Part shown: positions 257-10,896 of the stretch, in pieces
How positions within the stretch are numbered: the stretch's first letter is position 1
Layout of the letters: each line of letters starts with the position of its first letter
NCBI GenBank assembly: GCA_963775425.1
Contig: CAVZJB010000016.1
Span: 544,001-608,000 of the forward strand
Length of the DNA stretch: 64,000 nt
DNA from: an uncultured delta proteobacterium
GTDB lineage: Bacteria > Myxococcota > UBA727 > VGSZ01
Direction: 5' to 3'
Made by a program: the position numbers and the translations under genes
Notes under the pieces: generated by a model
Told to the model about the DNA's origin: nothing
Seen by the model: only the letters and a program-made list of their open reading frames with translations
Database searches by the model: none

Positions 257-1444
257 ATGGTGCACACCATGCCCTCGCGATCCGCGTTCGTACACGCGGC
301 CGACGTCGTCGAACGCGCGCTCGATGGAGCCGCTTGCGGCGCCGCCCGCGTCGACGCCCGCTTCGGCAGCGCCGAGGTCTCGTTCGCCGGGCTGTCGCCG
401 GCGCAAGCGGTCCACGCCGAGGCCCGCTTCGGCGCGCTCCCCCCAGCGGCCGCGCCCGACCCGGCGGTCCGGGTGCGGGTGGTGCGCGCGGCGCGCGAGG
501 GCTTCGTCGAGATAGACACCCGCGGCTGGGACAACACCATGGCGCTCGAGCACGCGCCCGACGTCGTCGTCGTCGTGGGCCGCGACTTCGTCGCCCGCGT
601 GGCGCCCGACGCACACGAGGCCACCGTGGCCACCTGGCTCGACGACGAGCACGTCATCGCCGCCCTCGAAAACCCGCTGCGTGTGCTGTCCGCCTACCTG
701 TGCCTCGCGCGCGGGGGCGCGCTCCTGCACTGCGCCGGCCTGGTCGACGGCGGGGCGGCGCGGGTGTGCTTCGGCCCCTCCGGGATCGGCAAGTCCACGG
801 TGGCGGCGGACTGGCTCGCCCGGGGCCGGAGCCTCCTGAGCGACGAGCTGTGCGCGCTCGAGCCCGAGGGCACGGGCTACGTCGTGGAGCAGCTCCCCTT
901 CGCCGGCGACGTCGCCGCCGCCGTCGTCCCCGGCGCCCGCGTGCCGCTCGCGGGGCTCTCGCGCCTCGACCAGGGCCCGGCCTCGCGCGTGGACCCCATG
1001 GGCAACGCCGCCGCCGTCGGCGCCCTCCTCGCGTGCGCGCCGTTCGTCAACGTCGATCCGTTCCGCCGCGACGCGCTCTTCTCCTCGCTCGAGCGCCTCG
1101 CGCGCGCGCACCCGGTGTCGCGCCTCACCCTGCGCCTCGGCGACGATCCGCGCGTCGTCCTCGCGGGGATCGAGGTCGCTTCGCGCTTCGCGCTCGCCCA
1201 CGGCGTCCGCTACCGCGTCGTCGACGGAGAGGCGCTCATCGTGTTGCAGACGTCGGGCGAGGCCGTGGGGCTGAACGGCACCGGCTCGCGGGCCTTCGAC
1301 CTCGCCGCGCGCGGCGCCTCGTTCGCGGCCATCGTCGACGCGCTCGACGGCGAGCTCGACGTCGAGCGCAGGACGCTCGAGAGCGATCTGCGCAGCTTCT
1401 TCGGCGAGCTCGTCGGCGGCGGCCTGCTCGAGGTGCGCGCGTGA
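257..1444 (+). CDS. HprK-related P-loop kinase fused to a C-terminal PqqD/RiPP recognition element (RRE) domain
   Basis: LLHCAGL, Walker A GPSGIGKST and LLSDEL are typical of HprK-like kinases. The last ~85 aa (YRVVDGEALIVLQTSGEAVGLNGTGSRAFDL...DLRSFFGELVGGGLLE) match the PqqD fold pattern. The start is probably ATG 257 or 269 rather than 65. Confidence 0.8.
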   Translation: MVHTMPSRSAFVHAADVVERALDGAACGAARVDARFGSAEVSFAGLSPAQAVHAEARFGALPPAAAPDPAVRVRVVRAAREGFVEIDTRGWDNTMALEHAPDVVVVVGRDFVARVAPDAHEATVATWLDDEHVIAALENPLRVLSAYLCLARGGALLHCAGLVDGGAARVCFGPSGIGKSTVAADWLARGRSLLSDELCALEPEGTGYVVEQLPFAGDVAAAVVPGARVPLAGLSRLDQGPASRVDPMGNAAAVGALLACAPFVNVDPFRRDALFSSLERLARAHPVSRLTLRLGDDPRVVLAGIEVASRFALAHGVRYRVVDGEALIVLQTSGEAVGLNGTGSRAFDLAARGASFAAIVDALDGELDVERRTLESDLRSFFGELVGGGLLEVRA

Positions 1445-2466
1445 GCTACGCCGACGTCATCGAAAACGCCTGGAACAAGAACGTGCTGCTCGTCGTGCTC
1501 TTCGAGCTCACCTACGACTGCAACTACGACTGCGTCTTTTGCTACAACGATCGGTCCCTCGCGGGGCGCAAGCTCGAGCTCGACGAGTACCTGCGCGTGC
1601 TCGACGAGCTCGCCGCCCTGGGCGTGTTGAACGTGGTGCTGTCGGGCGGCGAGCCCATGGTGCACCCCCACTTCTTCGACATCGGGGCCGCCGCCAAAGA
1701 GCGCGGCTTCGTGGTGCGTGTGAAGACCAACGGGCACCTGCTCCGCGGGGAGGCGCTCGAGCGGATGATGACCGACGTGGAGCCCCTCGCCGTGGAGGTG
1801 AGCCTGCACGGGGCCACCGCCGCCACGCACGAGAGGCAGACCAGGGTGCCCGGCAGCTTCGAGCGGCTCGTCGACAACCTGCGCGAGGCGCGCGACGCCG
1901 GGCTCCGCGTGCGCATCAACAGCACGCTCACCCGCTTCAACGAGGGCGAGCTCGACGCCATGTTCGCGCTCGCCGCCGCCCTCGGCTTCCCGCTCACGGT
2001 GGACCCGGACGTGACGCCGCGCGACGACGGCGATCGCTCACCGCTCGCCCTCGCCGCCAGCGACGACGCCCTGCGCGCGCTCGCCGGCCGGGGGCTCGTG
2101 CCCGGCGTGCACCACGAGGCGTGCGACACGCGCACCGACAAGCACTGCGGCGCCGGGTCATCGGCGCTGTGCATCGACCCGGTGGGCAACGTCTACCCCT
2201 GCGTGCAGTGGCGGCGCGCGGCGGGCAACGTGCGCGATGGCGCGCTGTCCGCCCTGTGGCGAAGCTCGCCCGTCCTCGCCGAGGTGCGCGCGCTCACCGT
2301 CGACGTCAAACGCATGGTGCAGTCCCACGACGCCGGCGCGTTCATGGGCTTTTGCCCCGGAACGGCCGAGAGCCTCGGCGGCGACCCGCTCGCTCCGTAC
2401 CTCAACGCCCGGCGTCGCAGTGACGCCGCGCTCGTGGTGCGCGGCAAGCTCCGCGTGCTCGACTGA
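1441..2466 (+). CDS. Radical SAM protein with SPASM/twitch-type C-terminal domain (PqqE-like peptide maturase family)
   Basis: The GTG start overlaps the upstream stop (GTGA). CxxxCxxC motif ELTYDCNYDCVFC, GGEP motif, TNG, and C-terminal CGAGSSALCIDPVGNVYPC. Confidence 0.9.
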   Translation: MSYADVIENAWNKNVLLVVLFELTYDCNYDCVFCYNDRSLAGRKLELDEYLRVLDELAALGVLNVVLSGGEPMVHPHFFDIGAAAKERGFVVRVKTNGHLLRGEALERMMTDVEPLAVEVSLHGATAATHERQTRVPGSFERLVDNLREARDAGLRVRINSTLTRFNEGELDAMFALAAALGFPLTVDPDVTPRDDGDRSPLALAASDDALRALAGRGLVPGVHHEACDTRTDKHCGAGSSALCIDPVGNVYPCVQWRRAAGNVRDGALSALWRSSPVLAEVRALTVDVKRMVQSHDAGAFMGFCPGTAESLGGDPLAPYLNARRRSDAALVVRGKLRVLD

Positions 2467-2474
2467 CGACGCGC

Positions 2475-2663
2475 TCAGCTCGAGATAGGTCCGCTCGGAC
2501 ACTGGCCGGGGTTGCCCTTGGCGGGAGGCGCCGGCGCGCACACCGCGGCGATGGCCTCGATGCGCTCGCGAAAGACCACGCGCGGCGCCGCGTACGGCTT
2601 CTTCTCGGGGTTGCCGCGGTTGTCCGGCGCTGTGTCCGGCGCGACCTGGGTGGGGGCCTTCAA
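2475..2663 (-). CDS. Candidate RiPP precursor peptide (62 aa)
   Basis: The TTG start at 2663 overlaps the C25 stop (TTGA), with GGAGG 5 nt upstream. Sequence MKAPTQVAPDTAPDNRGNPEKKPYAAPRVVFRERIEAIAAVCAPAPPAKGNPGQCPSGPISS: YxxP leader motif, two Cys, adjacent to RRE and rSAM genes. Confidence 0.7.
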   Translation of the reverse strand: MKAPTQVAPDTAPDNRGNPEKKPYAAPRVVFRERIEAIAAVCAPAPPAKGNPGQCPSGPISS

Positions 2664-5600
2664 CGCCGCCTCCGGCGCAGCAGCAGCGCGAGCCCGAGCG
2701 CGAGCGCCGCGAGGAGCGGTGCGCCGCCGCTCTGCGCGCAAGACGCCGAGTCCCCCGTGGAGGCGAGCGGCACGGTGGGGTCACCGAGCAGCTCTTCGGT
2801 GCCGAGGAGCCTCGCGTCGCCGCCGCCGTCGACGTACCCGCGCCCGGCGTCGACGAGGACGGCGCCCACCGTCCCGCCCTGCGAGAGCCGCGCGAAGAGC
2901 TGCGCCGCGAAATTGCCGGCGAGCGCGTCGCTGGTCTTCGTCGTGGGCGCGAGCGCGACGACGGCGCCGCCGGAGCGGATGAGGTCTTCACCGAGCCCCG
3001 GGAACGGAGCCAGCTCGAAGCGGTTGATGAGGCAGGTGAGCGCGAGCAGCGCCCACGGGCCGCGCGCCGCGAGCGCGTCCTCGTCGCGCGCCATCAGGAT
3101 GCCGTCGTTGCCGATGCGGTCCATGCCGCCGTGGCCGACGAAGGTCAGGAGGGACGAAGGCGCGAGGGCGTCGAGCACCGCGGCGCGCGTCTGATCCAAC
3201 GACGCGCCACCGGCCGACACCAGCGACGACGAGACCGTCACCTGCTGCCGCAAGCTCGCCGCCTCGGCCGCGAACGCGGCGCCGTCGCGCGGGCCGTCGG
3301 CGAGGAACGTGGCCGACGCTGGCCCGGCGAAGGCGCGCGCGCGCGCGAGGTAACCCTCGACGTCGGCCGCGCTGTGCGCCGGGATGCGGCCGACGGCGAC
3401 GTCGGGGACCCCGTCGCCGTCGACGTCGCCGGCCAGGGAGTCGGCGGCGGCCAGCCCGGCGCCGCCGGTCTGCTGGAGCAGCGGCGGGATGAAGTCCTCG
3501 TGCCGCCCTTGCACGTCGCGATAGTCGACGTCGCCGTCGCCGACGAAGACGGCGTAGCGCGGCGCGGGGCTCCAGCGCGCGACCGCAGCGGCGAGGAACC
3601 GGCGCAGCGCGCGGGGATCGGGGTCGCCGGCCGCGTACCGATCAAAGACGTCCTGCACGTCCACCACGCGGCTCACGAGCCCGCGCTCCGCGTGCCACGC
3701 GGCGAGGTCCGCCGCGGCGTCCAGGAACGCGTGGGGCGCGATGACGACGACGTCGGCGCCGCCGGCGGCGAGCGGGAGCGCGGGCCCCGCCGCGGGCACC
3801 ACGAGCGCGGGGCGCGCGCGCCCGTCCGCGAGCGCGAACACGCCGGCCGCCGGCAAGCGCGCGCGCAGCGCACCGTCGACGACGCGCGCGCCGGCGAGCC
3901 GCAGGAGCCGCCCGCCGTCGACGCGGTACAGCCACGACGACGCCGGCGCCCCGGCCAGCGCGACGACGTCCCCCGCCCCGCCCGCGAACACGCGCGGCGC
4001 CGCCGTGAGGGTGCGCTCGTAGTCGACGCGGACTGCGTCCAGGAACAGGGCGTTCATCGACACGCCGGGGTCGAGCACGGCGTCGACGGCGACGTGGACG
4101 TGGCCGCCGGCGACCGCGTCGGCGGGGAGGTCCAGCGAGCGCTCCACGCGGGCCACGCCGGAGAAGAACACGTCGCCGGCCGCGACGCCGTCGACGGTGA
4201 CGCGGACGTGGTGGTCGTCGGGCCTGCCCGCGTCGGTGGCGCCTTGCAGGGCGAGCGTGAGCCGCGGGGCGGCGCCGGCCTCGACGGCGCCGGGCGCGTC
4301 GACGTCGGTCTCGTAGTGGTCGTAGCCCGCGTAGCCCGCCGCGAGCGACGCGGCGAACCAGACGTCGGCGTTCGGGTCGAGGTCGACGCTGGTGCCGGGG
4401 AAGACGTCGTCGGCGCGCACCGCCGTGGCGCGGGCGCTGCGGCGTGTCACCGGCGCGACGCCTGGATCGGCGTCGACGACGCCCGCGCGCGCGCCGGCGG
4501 CCTCGGAGAGGAAGTACGTGCGCGCCGCGGCGAACGGGCTCGTCGAGCCCCGGCCCATGAAGACGAGCGCGCCGTCGCGGACGTCGACGGGGACGGCGAG
4601 CCCGTCGCTTTCGACCGCGATGTGCCCGTGGTCCGCGTCGTCGACGATGCGCTGCAGGGGGCGCTGAAGCAGCAGCGCGATCTGCGCGAGCGGAACGCCG
4701 ACGACGCCGTCGTCCTTCACGAGCACGCGCAGCCGCGCGGGCGGGCGAGCGCGCAACGGCGCCCCCGCGGACGGCAGCGCGGCGGGCGCGGCCATCATCG
4801 CGAGCTGCGGTGCGCCCGAGACACCGCTCCATTGCGGCGCGCCCCCGGCGAGGCTCGGCCCCCGCGGCAAGACCGCGCGCACGTCGACGACGTCGTAGGG
4901 GCCGTGCGCGGTGGCGTTGCCGCGCACGTCGTGCTCGGTGATGACGTAGGCCACCGCGCCGAACGCGGCCGCGTCGTCGTCGTGCACGGCGTAGGCGTGG
5001 CCCTCCGCGTGCATCGGGCTCGGCACCAGATCGCCGACGGGGGCGCGCTCGCCGTCTGCGCCGACGCGCTCGACGGAGAACCCGAGCGTGCCGGCCTCGC
5101 CGGCGGTGCGCCACGACACGTCGACGCCGCCGGGCGAGCGCTCCACGGCGACGTCGACGACGGACGCGTAGGTCTCCAGGCCCGCGGTGACCGCCAGCTC
5201 GCACAGCGGACCGAAGGTGAACGTGGCGCGCCCCTGCGTGCTGTTGCCGGTCTCGTCGACGTATTGCGCGGTCGTGCCCGCGGCCGTGGCGCCCGTGACG
5301 ACGATGCGCTCGCCCGCGGACGCCGGCGTGACGTCGACGTCGTAGGCGATGAGCGCCGTGGCCCCCGCTATGACGACGCCGGGGTTCCAGACCACGTCGC
5401 CCGCGACGCCCACGGCGGGGGACGTGGCCGTGCCCTGCGTGGCCGCGAGCGCACCGGCGAAGGACACGCCCGCCGGCACCGTCGACGTCACGGTGTGCGT
5501 GGCGGAGAACGTGATCGGCAGCGACGTCGGGTTCCGCACGCGCACCGTGACCGTGAGCGTCGACGTGCTCCCGGGCGCGGGCGGGTTCGGCCCGCCCTTG

Positions 5601-6637
5601 GCGCGTACGAATTGCTCGACGATGGGCTTCGCCGGCGCGGCGCCGCTGTCGCTCGGCAGGTAGAGGCGGAACGCGCCGGGCTCCGGTTGGTTGCGCGGGC
5701 TCGGCGGGTTGCCGCTGCCGGCCACCGCAGCGAATTGGCCTGCCACGGAGTAGGTAATGACGTTGGCGGCGGCGCCGCCGGCCTTGCGGACGTCGGCGGC
5801 GGCGGTCCACACGCCGTAGTTCTGCGCGGTGTTGTCGCTGGTGAACGGCGCCGACGCGTTGCTCCGCCAGACACCGTTGCCCGACACGTTCGTGAACGCC
5901 TGCGAGAAGCTCACGTTGCCGGTCAGCGTGTAGCTCGTGCCGGCCGCGCCGTCGGCGTCGAAGTCGTTGGAGGCGGCGGTGCAGCCGGAGGTCACCCAGG
6001 GGTGGAACGTGTTCACCTGCTGCGACGCGGTGGTAGGCCCGAGGCCGAGATAGCTGTCCGCGTACACCGGGATCTCGACGCCGCCTGCGCCGGGATCGCC
6101 GTCGTGGGCGCGGACGCCGTAGCCGGCGGTCTCGTCGCCGTTGTTGTTGGGATCGATGCGGAGCTCCCAGTGGCCCGCCGCGGGGTTTTGGACCGTCCCG
6201 AACAGCGCCGACCACGCGTTATCGACGCAGACCGCGGGCGTGTTGGCGTTGCTGCACACGACGGTGCCCCCCACCTGGGCCCCGCTCGGCGCAAACAGCG
6301 AGTAGGCCACCGACGTGTTGAACCGGCGGCCGGTGAGCAGATCGCGCGTGCCCTCCCCGTTGCCGCCGCGGCCGACGTCCGCGTCGAAGACCTCCACGAC
6401 GAGCTGCGAGAGGCCGGGCGGCACCTCGATGAAGAAGCGGTAGCTGTCGTTCAACGCCGGGGCCTGCGCGGTGCCGACCCAGTCGCCGCTCACGACCTGC
6501 TCGCCCGCGCCGTTCAGCCGCAACAGCGCGGTGGTGCTCGTGGGGTTGCTCGACGCAGCGGACGCCGCCGCGCACCACAGCGCCGCCACGGCGGGCGCGG
6601 CGCGGCACAGGGGGATCGGGAGCACAACGGAGCGCAC
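2660..6637 (-). CDS. Large secreted C25-family (gingipain-like) cysteine peptidase with DUF11/Ig-like region and MYXO-CTERM anchor
   Basis: N-terminal signal peptide and a DUF11-like TVTVRVRNPT...VPAGVSF segment. C25 hallmarks DVDGDGVPDVAVGRIP, FVGHGG (His) and ALTCL (Cys), ending LLGDP. C-terminus SCAQSGGAPLLAALALGLALLLRRRRR. Confidence 0.85.
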   Translation of the reverse strand: MRSVVLPIPLCRAAPAVAALWCAAASAASSNPTSTTALLRLNGAGEQVVSGDWVGTAQAPALNDSYRFFIEVPPGLSQLVVEVFDADVGRGGNGEGTRDLLTGRRFNTSVAYSLFAPSGAQVGGTVVCSNANTPAVCVDNAWSALFGTVQNPAAGHWELRIDPNNNGDETAGYGVRAHDGDPGAGGVEIPVYADSYLGLGPTTASQQVNTFHPWVTSGCTAASNDFDADGAAGTSYTLTGNVSFSQAFTNVSGNGVWRSNASAPFTSDNTAQNYGVWTAAADVRKAGGAAANVITYSVAGQFAAVAGSGNPPSPRNQPEPGAFRLYLPSDSGAAPAKPIVEQFVRAKGGPNPPAPGSTSTLTVTVRVRNPTSLPITFSATHTVTSTVPAGVSFAGALAATQGTATSPAVGVAGDVVWNPGVVIAGATALIAYDVDVTPASAGERIVVTGATAAGTTAQYVDETGNSTQGRATFTFGPLCELAVTAGLETYASVVDVAVERSPGGVDVSWRTAGEAGTLGFSVERVGADGERAPVGDLVPSPMHAEGHAYAVHDDDAAAFGAVAYVITEHDVRGNATAHGPYDVVDVRAVLPRGPSLAGGAPQWSGVSGAPQLAMMAAPAALPSAGAPLRARPPARLRVLVKDDGVVGVPLAQIALLLQRPLQRIVDDADHGHIAVESDGLAVPVDVRDGALVFMGRGSTSPFAAARTYFLSEAAGARAGVVDADPGVAPVTRRSARATAVRADDVFPGTSVDLDPNADVWFAASLAAGYAGYDHYETDVDAPGAVEAGAAPRLTLALQGATDAGRPDDHHVRVTVDGVAAGDVFFSGVARVERSLDLPADAVAGGHVHVAVDAVLDPGVSMNALFLDAVRVDYERTLTAAPRVFAGGAGDVVALAGAPASSWLYRVDGGRLLRLAGARVVDGALRARLPAAGVFALADGRARPALVVPAAGPALPLAAGGADVVVIAPHAFLDAAADLAAWHAERGLVSRVVDVQDVFDRYAAGDPDPRALRRFLAAAVARWSPAPRYAVFVGDGDVDYRDVQGRHEDFIPPLLQQTGGAGLAAADSLAGDVDGDGVPDVAVGRIPAHSAADVEGYLARARAFAGPASATFLADGPRDGAAFAAEAASLRQQVTVSSSLVSAGGASLDQTRAAVLDALAPSSLLTFVGHGGMDRIGNDGILMARDEDALAARGPWALLALTCLINRFELAPFPGLGEDLIRSGGAVVALAPTTKTSDALAGNFAAQLFARLSQGGTVGAVLVDAGRGYVDGGGDARLLGTEELLGDPTVPLASTGDSASCAQSGGAPLLAALALGLALLLRRRRR

Positions 6638-6794: not shown

Positions 6795-7637
6795 GTGAAG
6801 CTCCCCTTCGGCGCCGGCCGCGTGCTCGGGTCGCTCGCCGTCATGTCGCTCCTGCTCGCCGCCCTCGCGCGGCCACCGCTGCCCGGCGTCGCCCGCGTCG
6901 TCGTGGTGCTCGTCGTCGCGGCGCTCGCGGCGCTGTCGGCGCGCTCGAGCCTGCTGCTCATCGCCGCCCGCCGCGGGCTGCTCGTCGTCCAGGAGGGCGC
7001 GCCCCGTCACCGGCTCCTGCTCGTGAGCGTCCCCGCCGCCGCCGCGGGCGCGGTGCTCGGGGCGCCGCTGCTGGTGTTGCCGGCGGTGCACGCGCGCTTC
7101 GAGGTCCTCGTCGCCGGCCTCCTCGGCGCCCTCGCCGGCGCGGGCCTCGCCCTCGCCGACGACAGGCCCAAGGGCCCCCGGCCCACCACGCGCTTTTCGT
7201 GGCTGGTCCTCGACACGGCGCTGCCCGCGGGGATCGTCGCCGCGTCTGTGGGCGTCTGCGTCGCGTTCCTGCGGCTGCGCAACCTCGACGTCGTCACGCC
7301 CGGCGAGCTCGCCCGCCACCTCGGCATGACCACGTTCGCGTACGCGCTCCTCCTCGGCTTGGCGGGCTTCTTCAAGGCCTACGGCGAGCAGTCCGCCGGC
7401 CTCGTCGTCGTCGAAAAGACGGCCGCGTCCCTCCCCGGCCCCGTGCTCGCGGGCGCCGCCCTCGGCGTCACCCTCTTGTTCGCCGTGCCGCACCTCGCGC
7501 CGGCGCTCCCGCTGCGCGACGCGCTGATCCTCAAGGCGGCCGTCGGCCTCGTCGTCGGCGGCGGCCTCTCGTTGCTCGGCGCCCTTCAGGGAGCGCGGGC
7601 AGCGTCGCTCGGTCTCAAGCGGCGCAAGGCTAGCTGA
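6795..7637 (+). CDS. Hypothetical multi-pass membrane protein
   Basis: 280-aa ORF with about 8-9 hydrophobic segments, filling the gap between opposite-strand genes. Confidence 0.65.
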   Translation: MKLPFGAGRVLGSLAVMSLLLAALARPPLPGVARVVVVLVVAALAALSARSSLLLIAARRGLLVVQEGAPRHRLLLVSVPAAAAGAVLGAPLLVLPAVHARFEVLVAGLLGALAGAGLALADDRPKGPRPTTRFSWLVLDTALPAGIVAASVGVCVAFLRLRNLDVVTPGELARHLGMTTFAYALLLGLAGFFKAYGEQSAGLVVVEKTAASLPGPVLAGAALGVTLLFAVPHLAPALPLRDALILKAAVGLVVGGGLSLLGALQGARAASLGLKRRKAS

Positions 7638-8517
7638 CGACGCGGTTTCTGCCGCCCTGCTTGCCTTCGTAGAGCTTCTCGTCGGCGCGCTCGATGAAGC
7701 TGTCGACGCTGTCGCCCTTGGCCATCTGGGTGACGCCCATGGAGATGGTCACCGGGATGATGTTCCCCTCGAACTCGTAGCGGGTCTCCTCGATCATCTG
7801 CCGGATCTTCTCGGCGAGGATGACGCCGCGGTCGGCGGGCGTGTCCGGCAGGAGGATGGCGAACTCCTCGCCGCCGTAGCGGGCGAAGCACTCCTCCTTG
7901 CGGATGTTCTTCGTCGAGATGGAGATGGAGAGCTTCTTCAACACGAAGTCGCCGGCGAGGTGCCCGTACTCGTCGTTCACCTTCTTGAAGTGATCGATGT
8001 CGAACATGATGAGCGCCAGGGGTCTTTGATAGCGAGCACAGCGCGCCATCTCGCGATCGATGAACTCGAGGAAGTAGCGCTTGTTGTAGGTCTGCGTGAG
8101 GCCATCGATGATGGCCATCCGGTAGATCTCTTCGTAGTAGAGCTGCTCGATGTTGTCGCCGTCGATGAACTTGAAGATGACGCCGCCGACCTTGACGAAG
8201 TCACCGTTTTTGAGCTTCCGCCTCGACGTCAGCTCCTCGTCGTTGACGAAGGTGCCGTTGGTGGAGCCCATGTCCTCGATGTAGTTGCCGCCGGCGCCCG
8301 CGTAGATCTTGCAGTGCGTGCGCGACACGTTGTCCATGTCGCAGACGATGCCGTTGTCGGGGCCGCGGCCGATGGTGGTCTGCACCTTGTCGAGCGGGTA
8401 CTTGCGCCCGATGTCCTTGCCGTAGATCTGCACGAAGCAGGGGATGCCACCGGCAAGGCGCTTGTCGGCGATCTTGCTGACCTGGGAGACGCGGGTCTTC
8501 TCTTCGCGGGTGACCAC
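7630..8517 (-). CDS. FHA domain diguanylate cyclase (DgcB-like)
   Basis: FHA motifs TIGRG, VSRTH and DMGSTNGTFVN, followed by a GGDEF domain (DIDHFKKVNDEYGHLAGD, RYGGEEF). Confidence 0.92.
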   Translation of the reverse strand: MVTREEKTRVSQVSKIADKRLAGGIPCFVQIYGKDIGRKYPLDKVQTTIGRGPDNGIVCDMDNVSRTHCKIYAGAGGNYIEDMGSTNGTFVNDEELTSRRKLKNGDFVKVGGVIFKFIDGDNIEQLYYEEIYRMAIIDGLTQTYNKRYFLEFIDREMARCARYQRPLALIMFDIDHFKKVNDEYGHLAGDFVLKKLSISISTKNIRKEECFARYGGEEFAILLPDTPADRGVILAEKIRQMIEETRYEFEGNIIPVTISMGVTQMAKGDSVDSFIERADEKLYEGKQGGRNRVVS

Positions 8518-8529
8518 GGGGGGACCGTA

Positions 8530-10020
<1,491 letters not shown>

Positions 10021-10116
10021 GCGGGGAATGTGCCCCGAGCCGCCGCCCCGCGTCAATCAAGCTCCCGGGGTGCTTCCCGCATTGACGTCGACAAGCCCCC
10101 GCGTGATCCCGCCCGC

Positions 10117-10896
10117 ATGAACAAGCTCCTCAAAACGGCCGACGAGGCCGTCAAGGACGTCGCGGACGGGGCCACCCTGATGGTGGGCGGCTTCGGCCTG
10201 TGCGGGAACCCCGAGTCGCTGATCAGCGCCCTGCACCGCAGGGGCACAAAGGGGCTGCACATCATCTCCAACAACTGCGGCACCACCGACAAGGGCCTGG
10301 GCATCCTCCTCGCCGCAGGCCAGGTGAACAAGATGGTGTCCTCGTACGTCGGCGAGAACAAGGAGTTCGAGCGGCGCTACCTGACGGGCGAGCTCGACGT
10401 GGAGCTCAACCCCCAGGGCACCCTGGCGGAGCGCATCCGGGCGGGCGGCGCCGGGATCCCGGCCTTCTACACGGCCACCGGCGTGGGCACCGCGGTCTCC
10501 GAGGGCGGCCTGCCCATCCGGTACAGCGCCGACGGCAAGGTCCTCGTGGAGTCGCCCAAGAAGGAGGTGCGAGCCCTGGTGGACCCGCGCACCGGCAAGG
10601 AGCGCCGGTACGTCCTCGAGACCGGCCTGTTCGCGGACTTCGCCCTGGTGCGGGCTTTCAAGGCGGATGCCTACGGCAACCTGGTGTTCCGAAAGACCGC
10701 GCGGAATTTCTCGCCGATGATGTGCGCGGCGGCGCGGGTGTGCATCGTCGAGGCCGAGCAGATCGTCGACAAGATCGACGGCGACGAGGTGCACGTCCCC
10801 GGCGTCTACGTGAAGCGCCTGATCAAGGTCGAGCACAAGGCCAACTGGATCGAGCAGCGGACCGTCCGTCCGCGCGCAGAAGGGAGCGCGTCATGA
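10117..10896 (+). CDS. scoA: 3-oxoacid CoA-transferase subunit A
   Basis: [42 protein letters not shown] and TARNF motifs. ATG at 10117. Confidence 0.92.

Follow-up and report, generated by a model that had tools for sequence, protein, structure and literature searches.

The window analysed here is the whole stretch of 64,000 nucleotides (nt) from an uncultured delta proteobacterium (assembly GCA_963775425.1, contig CAVZJB010000016.1, positions 544,001 to 608,000), and the element under study is a small gene on its minus strand (2475..2663), which consists of 62 codons and a TGA stop (2477-2475). Immediately upstream, on the same strand, lies the gene of a PorU-like Peptidase_C25 protein of 1325 amino acids (aa) (2660..6637, minus). 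Facing the small gene, on the plus strand, is the gene of a radical S-adenosylmethionine (radical-SAM) enzyme with a truncated SPASM/twitch-like domain (341 aa, 1441..2466), whose GTG start at 1441 overlaps the TGA stop of the gene of an HprK/phosphoenolpyruvate carboxykinase (PEPCK)-like P-loop kinase (395 aa, 257..1444; alternative start ATG 269). The kinase carries at its C-terminus a PqqD-type recognition element (RRE) for peptides that are made by ribosomes and modified after translation (RiPPs). These four genes (C25, peptide, radical-SAM, kinase-RRE) make up the locus, which is the minimal form among its relatives. The original prediction, made from the sequence alone, took the small gene for a precursor-type peptide gene, and our homology searches confirm at the sequence level that it is a real and widely conserved gene of this type. 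We consider it likely that its product is the precursor of an undescribed RiPP family, the leader of which would dock on the RRE and the core of which would be phosphorylated and cross-linked. The gene is convergent with the kinase-RRE and radical-SAM genes and lies outside their operon, and its tight link to the PorU-like C25 peptidase (upstream and co-directional in 40 of 73 loci) had been overlooked.

The start codon of the peptide gene is TTG 2663-2661, which follows a Shine-Dalgarno-like GGAGG (2669..2673, minus) with a 5-nt spacer and overlaps the TGA stop of the C25 gene (2662-2660) as TTGA, an arrangement that suggests translational coupling with the upstream gene. The one other candidate start, TTG 2741, would give 88 aa; it was rejected, as translation from there would read across the Arg-rich tail of the upstream 1325-aa protein. 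The preference of the original prediction for TTG 2663 over this 88-aa call is borne out by the GGAGG, by the TTGA overlap and by a family-like leader length: counted from TTG 2663, 23 residues precede the Tyr of the leader motif (family median: 22), and the interval from 2663 to the Y24 codon contains no further in-frame ATG, GTG or TTG. Translation of 2475-2741 (minus) returned residues identical to those quoted originally, down to the final Ser-Ser-stop. The leader motif itself, [YW]xxP, is encoded as Y24-A-A-P27 at 2583..2594 (minus) and is assigned to RRE docking from its conservation and its modelled RRE contacts, and the putative core, A40-S62 (2478..2546, minus), includes C42 (2540-2538), K49 (2519-2517), C55 (2501-2499) and S62 (2480-2478). 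The open reading frame (ORF) occupies nearly all of the 193-nt gap that separates two convergent genes, its stop being 8 nt from the radical-SAM stop (2464-2466) on the opposite strand. Since the G+C content of the window is high (71.6%) and its first 14 kb hold 85 ORFs of at least 40 aa, an open frame is by itself no evidence of a gene. The G+C at codon positions 1/2/3 of the peptide ORF is 0.68/0.61/0.90, and a sliding frame plot fits minus-strand coding at this place.

Homologues of the peptide were searched in six frames across 38 genomes of the same order, including the source genome (G000), and were found in G031 (E 2.0e-14, 64% identity), G025 (E 4.3e-7) and G026 (E 4.6e-6), the other matches having E-values of 0.07 or worse. 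The genomes G025 and G026 have a G+C content of 49% and 46%, respectively, and their homologues (57 and 51 aa) are clean ORFs that start with ATG and converge on a radical-SAM homologue, as in the window; the G031 homologue also follows a C25 gene. Between the window peptide and the two low-GC homologues, 58% of codon positions 1+2 are identical vs. 17–22% of third positions, and the 46 codons compared with G031 comprise 18 identical, 11 synonymous and 17 non-synonymous ones. A profile built from these four sequences retrieved 49 called proteins among 5.8 billion, none of which bears a functional name, and 244 representative clusters (50% identity) at E <= 0.001 among 1.84 billion, including 26 at E <= 1e-10. 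The peptide matches no Pfam or NCBIfam family at E <= 0.01, and three members match no Pfam family at E <= 1. Most of the loci come from Acidobacteriota, largely of soil and sediment and including Thermoanaerobaculia and Holophagales, and a few from Myxococcota (L099, L101) and Gammaproteobacteria (L097, L100, L103, L104).

Conservation was counted over 197 distinct sequences, obtained by pooling the 49 called proteins with 150 listed representatives of the 244 clusters. The residues that the original prediction had singled out (YxxP, second Cys and terminal Ser) are kept throughout the family: [YW]xxP occurs in 196 members, exactly two Cys lie within the last 32 residues in 192, and the terminal residue is Ser in 195, Thr taking its place in the other 2. 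Its description of a two-Cys core holds for the Cys pair and had missed a Lys, the conservation of which equals that of the Cys. The resulting pattern, C-x(n)-K-x(n)-C-x(n)-S-end, is found in 193 members, with a K-to-C gap of 5 in 169 of these and a C-to-end gap of 6 in 158, and the penultimate residue is variable (Ser 109, Asn 33, Gln 18, others 37). Apart from the terminal Ser, the family has no invariant Ser or other hydroxyl residue, and the cores of the acidobacterial members are nearly identical to one another. Such a near-invariant core suggests a conserved cellular role, closer to that of a cofactor or structural precursor than to that of an arms-race antibiotic.

The synteny of the locus was studied by scanning one genome per species, which yielded 75 loci, 73 of them with the peptide as detected by tblastn. 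The radical-SAM gene is convergent with the peptide gene and at most 600 nt downstream in 54 of these 73 loci, so that homologous peptides do lie near related radical-SAM genes, the absence of which would have told against the original prediction; it is convergent within 2 kb in 4 further loci, convergent beyond 2 kb in 4, co-directional in 5 and not found in 6 (in 1 case through a contig end). A kinase match accompanies the peptide in 64/73 loci. The C25 gene is upstream and co-directional within 700 nt in 30 loci and farther away in the same arrangement in 10; it is elsewhere in 1 and was not found in 32 (5 of them through a contig end). Genes recurring around the peptide were identified by clustering the ORFs within 9 kb of it, after pre-filtering of the high-GC loci by codon-position G+C, a step that may drop genes. 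They include, among the related loci, a second PqqD gene (28 loci), a sugar transferase (26), a Wzy_C protein (25), a lasso B2-like peptidase (NF033537, 1e-16; 22/73), a 146-aa protein with a GSxM-type motif and a weak match to archaeal signal peptidase I (SpI) (TIGR02228, 1.8e-4; 22 loci) and an NTP_transf_5 nucleotidyltransferase (PF14907, 9e-34; 21/73).

The kinase-RRE protein matches PqqD (4.3e-08), as well as HprK_rel_A (1.5e-05) and HprK_rel_B (0.0033), both far under their cut-offs, and its relatives of solved structure in sequence searches include TbiB1 (9e-07) and the PDB chain 9x8z_B (0.008). Its AlphaFold model (mean predicted local distance difference test, pLDDT, of 89.3) was compared with the PDB using Foldseek, which returned ATP-dependent PEP carboxykinases first (2.4e-08), together with the lasso RRE TbiB1 (template modelling score of 0.87 on the target) and the HPr kinase/phosphatases 1knx (1.5e-4) and 3tqf (3.9e-4). 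Kinase (~300–320 aa) and PqqD domain are encoded by separate genes in most related loci and are fused in the window, as in two other Myxococcota proteins (P0203, P0204). The stand-alone kinase homologues P0205–P0208 carry the precomputed Pfam tag PF27840.1. The YxxP leader had been proposed as an RRE docking site, a view strengthened both by the near-universal motif (196/197) and by complex prediction. When the kinase-RRE (28-row alignment) was modelled with the peptide (50-row alignment) alongside three controls, the complex scored 0.69 vs. 0.45 for the best control, with a contact agreement between runs of at least 74% and a partner pLDDT of at least 52; the mark used is reached by 58/80 solved complexes and 2/110 mismatched pairs, rates that are rough with custom alignments. 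The confident interface places peptide residues 18 and 20–35 on RRE residues 329–385 and leaves the core unplaced. The model thus supports [YW]xxP as the probable RRE docking site of the leader.

Regarding the substrate residue of the kinase, the terminal Ser is a plausible target, because it is the sole invariant Ser of the peptide and the kinase family keeps the motif of lasso-tailoring kinases. According to PMC9266682, those enzymes have a His-Lys-Asp-Asp motif and phosphorylate a conserved C-terminal Ser on the linear precursor; in the window kinase family, the motif is kept as His-Lys-Asp-Asp/Glu, with H158, K179 (Walker A) and D196 invariant in 28 aligned kinases and position 197 mostly Asp (Glu in the window). 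The most serious alternative is that the kinase acts on another residue or another substrate, the terminal Ser being kept, for example, because the C25 peptidase or the radical-SAM enzyme recognizes it. A precedent exists in the linear polyphosphorylated peptides (LPPs), the kinase of which (LppK) phosphorylates Ser3 of the core according to PMC13381572, and our complex model is confident for the leader only. Nevertheless, we regard this alternative as unlikely, given that the only invariant hydroxyl is the terminal one (Ser in 195/197 members, Thr in the other 2), next to a penultimate residue that varies, and given the activity of the His-Lys-Asp-Asp lasso kinases on just such a C-terminal Ser (PMC9266682). 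Phosphorylation of the terminal Ser accordingly keeps its place in our preferred reading as a plausible step.

The radical-SAM enzyme matches Radical_SAM (4e-23) and, over profile positions 1–52 of 67, SPASM (2.5e-06). A complete SPASM motif has seven Cys. In 64 homologues, the only invariant Cys are six, C22/C26/C29, C231, C249 and C300, and the last three presumably represent the motif's first half together with a distal Cys. The numbering counts from GTC at position 1456; taking the likely start, GTG 1441, leaves the results unaffected. The SPASM assignment thus stands as a partial Pfam match and fails for the full motif, only three Cys being conserved after the radical-SAM core, a truncation that the original prediction had omitted. 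From this pattern, the enzyme would hold a single auxiliary cluster, perhaps with an open site. A function of the two peptide Cys as thioether donors is plausible, and their cross-linking is a well-motivated proposal.

The modified peptide might instead be a peptide-derived cofactor or a fixed building block, similar to pyrroloquinoline quinone (PQQ) or mycofactocin and obtained through a PqqE- or MftC-like transformation of the invariant core. The best NCBIfam match of the radical-SAM enzyme is indeed the mycofactocin maturase MftC (1.8e-35) and its closest solved relative is PqqE (8.9e-18), and the core is nearly invariant across phyla, as in cofactor precursors. Yet the MftC score (122.7 bits) is far under the cut-off of 265, the PqqE family score is 87 vs. 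a cut-off of 381, and the enzyme scores far under the cut-offs of all named NCBIfam families. Moreover, the marks of mycofactocin and PQQ precursors (Val-Tyr end, Glu..Tyr pair) are absent from the window peptide, which ends in Ser-Ser and has neither Tyr nor Glu in its core, and no dehydrogenase or other user enzyme appears among the conserved neighbours. An extracytoplasmic peptidase and links to polysaccharide genes better fit a surface or exported product, so that we judge a cofactor improbable and continue to favour a cross-linked, phosphorylated RiPP.

The PorU-like protein matches Peptidase_C25 (1e-43), and His1169 and Cys1202 are invariant in 34 C25 sequences. A direct phmmer search of its C25 domain against the PDB gave no match, but a profile search succeeded, with PorU (6za2, 1.3e-29) as the best hit, followed by gingipain R, and with the catalytic His and Cys aligned; in the PorU family model NF033707, the protein reaches 80.4 bits vs. 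a cut-off of 420. Its C-terminal tail (encoded by 2660-2760, minus) combines a Cys and a Gly-rich region with a hydrophobic helix and RRRRR, and may correspond to a MYXO-CTERM sorting signal. The closeness of the two genes raises the question of whether the peptide serves the C25 protein as a cytoplasmic tail, i.e., as a tethered substrate or regulatory module that would normally be synthesized within that protein or brought to it, rather than as an independent precursor. In this respect, the peptide start overlaps the C25 stop, the C25 gene is directly upstream in 30/73 loci, and in two called proteins, P0098 (1426 aa) and P0128 (714 aa), a C25 domain with a membrane helix and a basic segment is continued in frame by the peptide. 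A third protein, P0096, has the peptide fused in frame after a PqqD domain; these fusions may be natural, or they may be errors of assembly or gene calling. Against a tail function, the two genes of the window are in different frames and the peptide gene has its own GGAGG and start, no C25 is near the peptide in 32/73 loci (in L012 and L013, the peptide sits beside the radical-SAM gene without any C25 match), and only two C25 fusions, possibly artefactual, occur among the 150 listed representatives. We thus see this possibility as slightly more remote than that of a cofactor, and retain an independent precursor. Finally, that the peptide ORF is a chance open frame, as the plentiful open frames at 71.6% GC and its filling of almost the entire gap between convergent genes might suggest, has a practically nil probability and is ruled out by the conservation of its homologues, which exhibit the same motifs in clean ORFs of 46–49% GC genomes, form 244 representative clusters, keep their synteny and show a protein-level substitution pattern.

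On the observed gene family, motifs, synteny and domain identities, we base the following pathway. The leader (approximately residues 1–39) would dock on the kinase-fused PqqD-type RRE, to which its [YW]xxP-x-hydrophobic stretch would add a strand, and the RRE would in this way offer the 23-residue core A40-S62 to two enzymes of the cytoplasm. Of these, the HprK-like kinase most likely phosphorylates, and perhaps polyphosphorylates, the invariant C-terminal Ser, as paeninodin-type kinases do, and the radical-SAM enzyme, with its single three-Cys auxiliary cluster site, most likely introduces one or two intramolecular cross-links at C42 and C55, the partners of which might be K49 or neighbouring residues. 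The leader would then be cut after a conserved small residue (A39) three positions before the first Cys, a site matching that of LPPs and proposed because the leader was aligned to the LPP motif. In the relatives, an SpI-like or lasso B2-like peptidase could remove the leader; the window locus has neither. Lastly, the PorU-like C25 peptidase, predicted to be extracytoplasmic on a membrane anchor, would act on or with the exported product.

Several points weigh against this pathway. The chemistry of all steps, the site of leader removal and the function of the C25 peptidase are predictions, and the near-fixed core, far above the norm of antibiotic RiPPs in its conservation, speaks against a simple bacteriocin role. 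The success of the complex prediction, silent on the core, may stem from a memory of solved RRE-leader structures (TbiB1, LppB), and in a search of the peptide profile against all PDB chains, the top hit was the 27-residue LppA leader 9x8z_A with a non-significant E-value of 0.27. In the LPP system, as described in PMC13381572, the kinase modifies core Ser3 and not the last residue, and the equivalent position here is C42 instead of a Ser. As for the gene content, 32 loci are devoid of C25 near the peptide (5 of them owing to a short contig), and the neighbouring ORFs scanned at the window locus include no SpI-like peptidase, nucleotidyltransferase or exporter. Across the source genome, the best match to the B2 peptidase NF033537 has an E-value of 0.131, under the cut-off. 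The pathway at the window locus is therefore either minimal or incomplete.

The sole SpI-like match of the source genome lies not at this locus but on contig C8, where it belongs to a second, divergent cassette (~390,400–399,200; L111 4420-13212, minus). That cassette starts with a 1667-aa Big_13/FG-GAP/PKD surface protein, which is followed by a 58-aa peptide (L111 8029-8205) that has a PYxxP leader, contains two Cys and ends in Ser. Next come a P-loop kinase-like ORF, a radical-SAM/SPASM enzyme and a PRMT-like methyltransferase, and the last member is a 140-aa S26-like peptidase. Around the window locus, the outer neighbours look unrelated (PlsB-like acyltransferase, dUTPase, Ser/Thr kinase, GGDEF-FHA protein, PP2C). 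Beyond the C25 gene, the region 7630-10361 (minus) contains a 102-aa ORF as well as the genes of an FHA-GGDEF diguanylate cyclase and of a PP2C phosphatase that includes a cNMP-binding domain, all of which have a lower first-position G+C than their neighbours in the codon-position filter. A predicted HExxH lipoprotein of 265 aa (L009 13147-13944, plus), encoded just outside the left end of the window, immediately precedes the kinase-RRE gene; it was considered as a member of the system and rejected, since none of the 75 related loci has a homologue of it at 1e-5 and it has no Pfam match.

If our reading is right, a substrate has been defined for a widespread and unstudied peptide-modification pathway, present as 244 clusters at 50% identity, in which two predicted chemistries, radical-SAM cross-linking and HprK-type Ser phosphorylation, are tied to a PorU-like surface peptidase. 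The union of these two chemistries is not reported in the open-access papers that we searched, the text of which contains no description of this enzyme combination; neither of the core motifs, CPSGPISS or SGPISS, occurs there. Knowledge of the precursor makes the product accessible by co-expression and its structure solvable. One scenario for the product, speculative and to be given a low probability, is that it is no antibiotic but a conserved component from which the envelope is built. The terminal phospho-Ser of this cross-linked peptide would serve as a handle for a sugar or polymer through the nucleotidyltransferases of the relatives, the C25 peptidase coupling it to, or trimming it from, a surface polysaccharide by transpeptidation. 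Were this the case, a ribosomal peptide would prime or anchor a surface glycoconjugate, and would do so in at least three phyla.

Among described systems, the LPP pathway (LppA/K/B/S/D/N) of Bacillota comes closest (Popov et al., Nat Commun 2026; PMC13381572). According to that article, the LPP precursor has the leader motif YxxPxVLxHQxIxFETxxS, LppK polyphosphorylates Ser3 of a highly variable core, a peptidase cuts after T(-1), and the clusters are found in capsule loci and restricted to Bacillota, the final product and its role being left undetermined by the authors. Both systems share the first half of the leader, Y-x-x-P-x-[VI]-L-x-x-[QE]-x-[IL], as well as a PqqD-type RRE and an HprK-like kinase (fused here, mostly separate in the relatives). 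Further similarities are confined to the related loci: an SpI-like peptidase (22), an NTP_transf_5 nucleotidyltransferase (21) and polysaccharide genes (25–26). When the leader motifs are aligned, the LPP cut site falls after A39 and LPP Ser3 on C42. The window peptide differs in having no FET..S part in its leader and a Cys at the Ser3-equivalent position, and its locus has no SpI-like peptidase, nucleotidyltransferase or MsbA-like exporter among the scanned ORFs. Conversely, the LPP clusters, as presented in the article, comprise neither a radical-SAM enzyme nor a C25 peptidase, and its main text nowhere uses the terms radical, SPASM, C25, Acidobacteri or Myxococc. The LPP core is variable and phosphorylated on Ser3, whereas the present one is nearly invariant with a terminal Ser, and the LPPs reported in Bacillota only stand against a family found in Acidobacteriota, Myxococcota and Gammaproteobacteria. 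A conserved role, if true, would extend the question raised by LPPs, i.e., the function of phosphorylated linear peptides near polysaccharide loci (PMC13381572).

With lasso peptides of the paeninodin type (PadeK, ThcoK, PsmK/PsmN; PMC9266682), the family shares an RRE-bound [YW]xxP leader, a conserved C-terminal Ser and a His-Lys-Asp-Asp kinase, but it has a radical-SAM enzyme in addition, and it lacks the macrolactam cyclase and the acidic acceptor of the lasso systems as they are described there. A lasso peptide was consequently rejected: no acidic residue follows C42, and no Asn_synthase match was obtained in the 19 scanned neighbour ORFs. The same conclusion had been drawn originally from the core, and the lack of a cyclase in these ORFs and of any B2 peptidase over the cut-off genome-wide agrees with it. 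The RRE-linked radical-SAM/SPASM maturases (sactipeptide and ranthipeptide synthases, PqqE, MftC) are comparable in their CxxxCxxC core, C-terminal Fe-S domain, PqqD-type RRE and Cys-containing peptide core, but have a seven-Cys motif where three Cys are conserved here, and the present enzyme is coupled to a kinase. PorU of the type IX secretion system (T9SS), a C-terminal signal peptidase/sortase, has the C25 catalytic domain and the His-Cys dyad in common with the protein of the window, which differs from it in its membrane anchor and basic tail, in having no T9SS context and in its association with a small-peptide modification cassette. Altogether, the family combines a machinery similar to that of LPP biosynthesis and lasso tailoring with a radical-SAM enzyme and a PorU-like peptidase, around a different and nearly fixed core.

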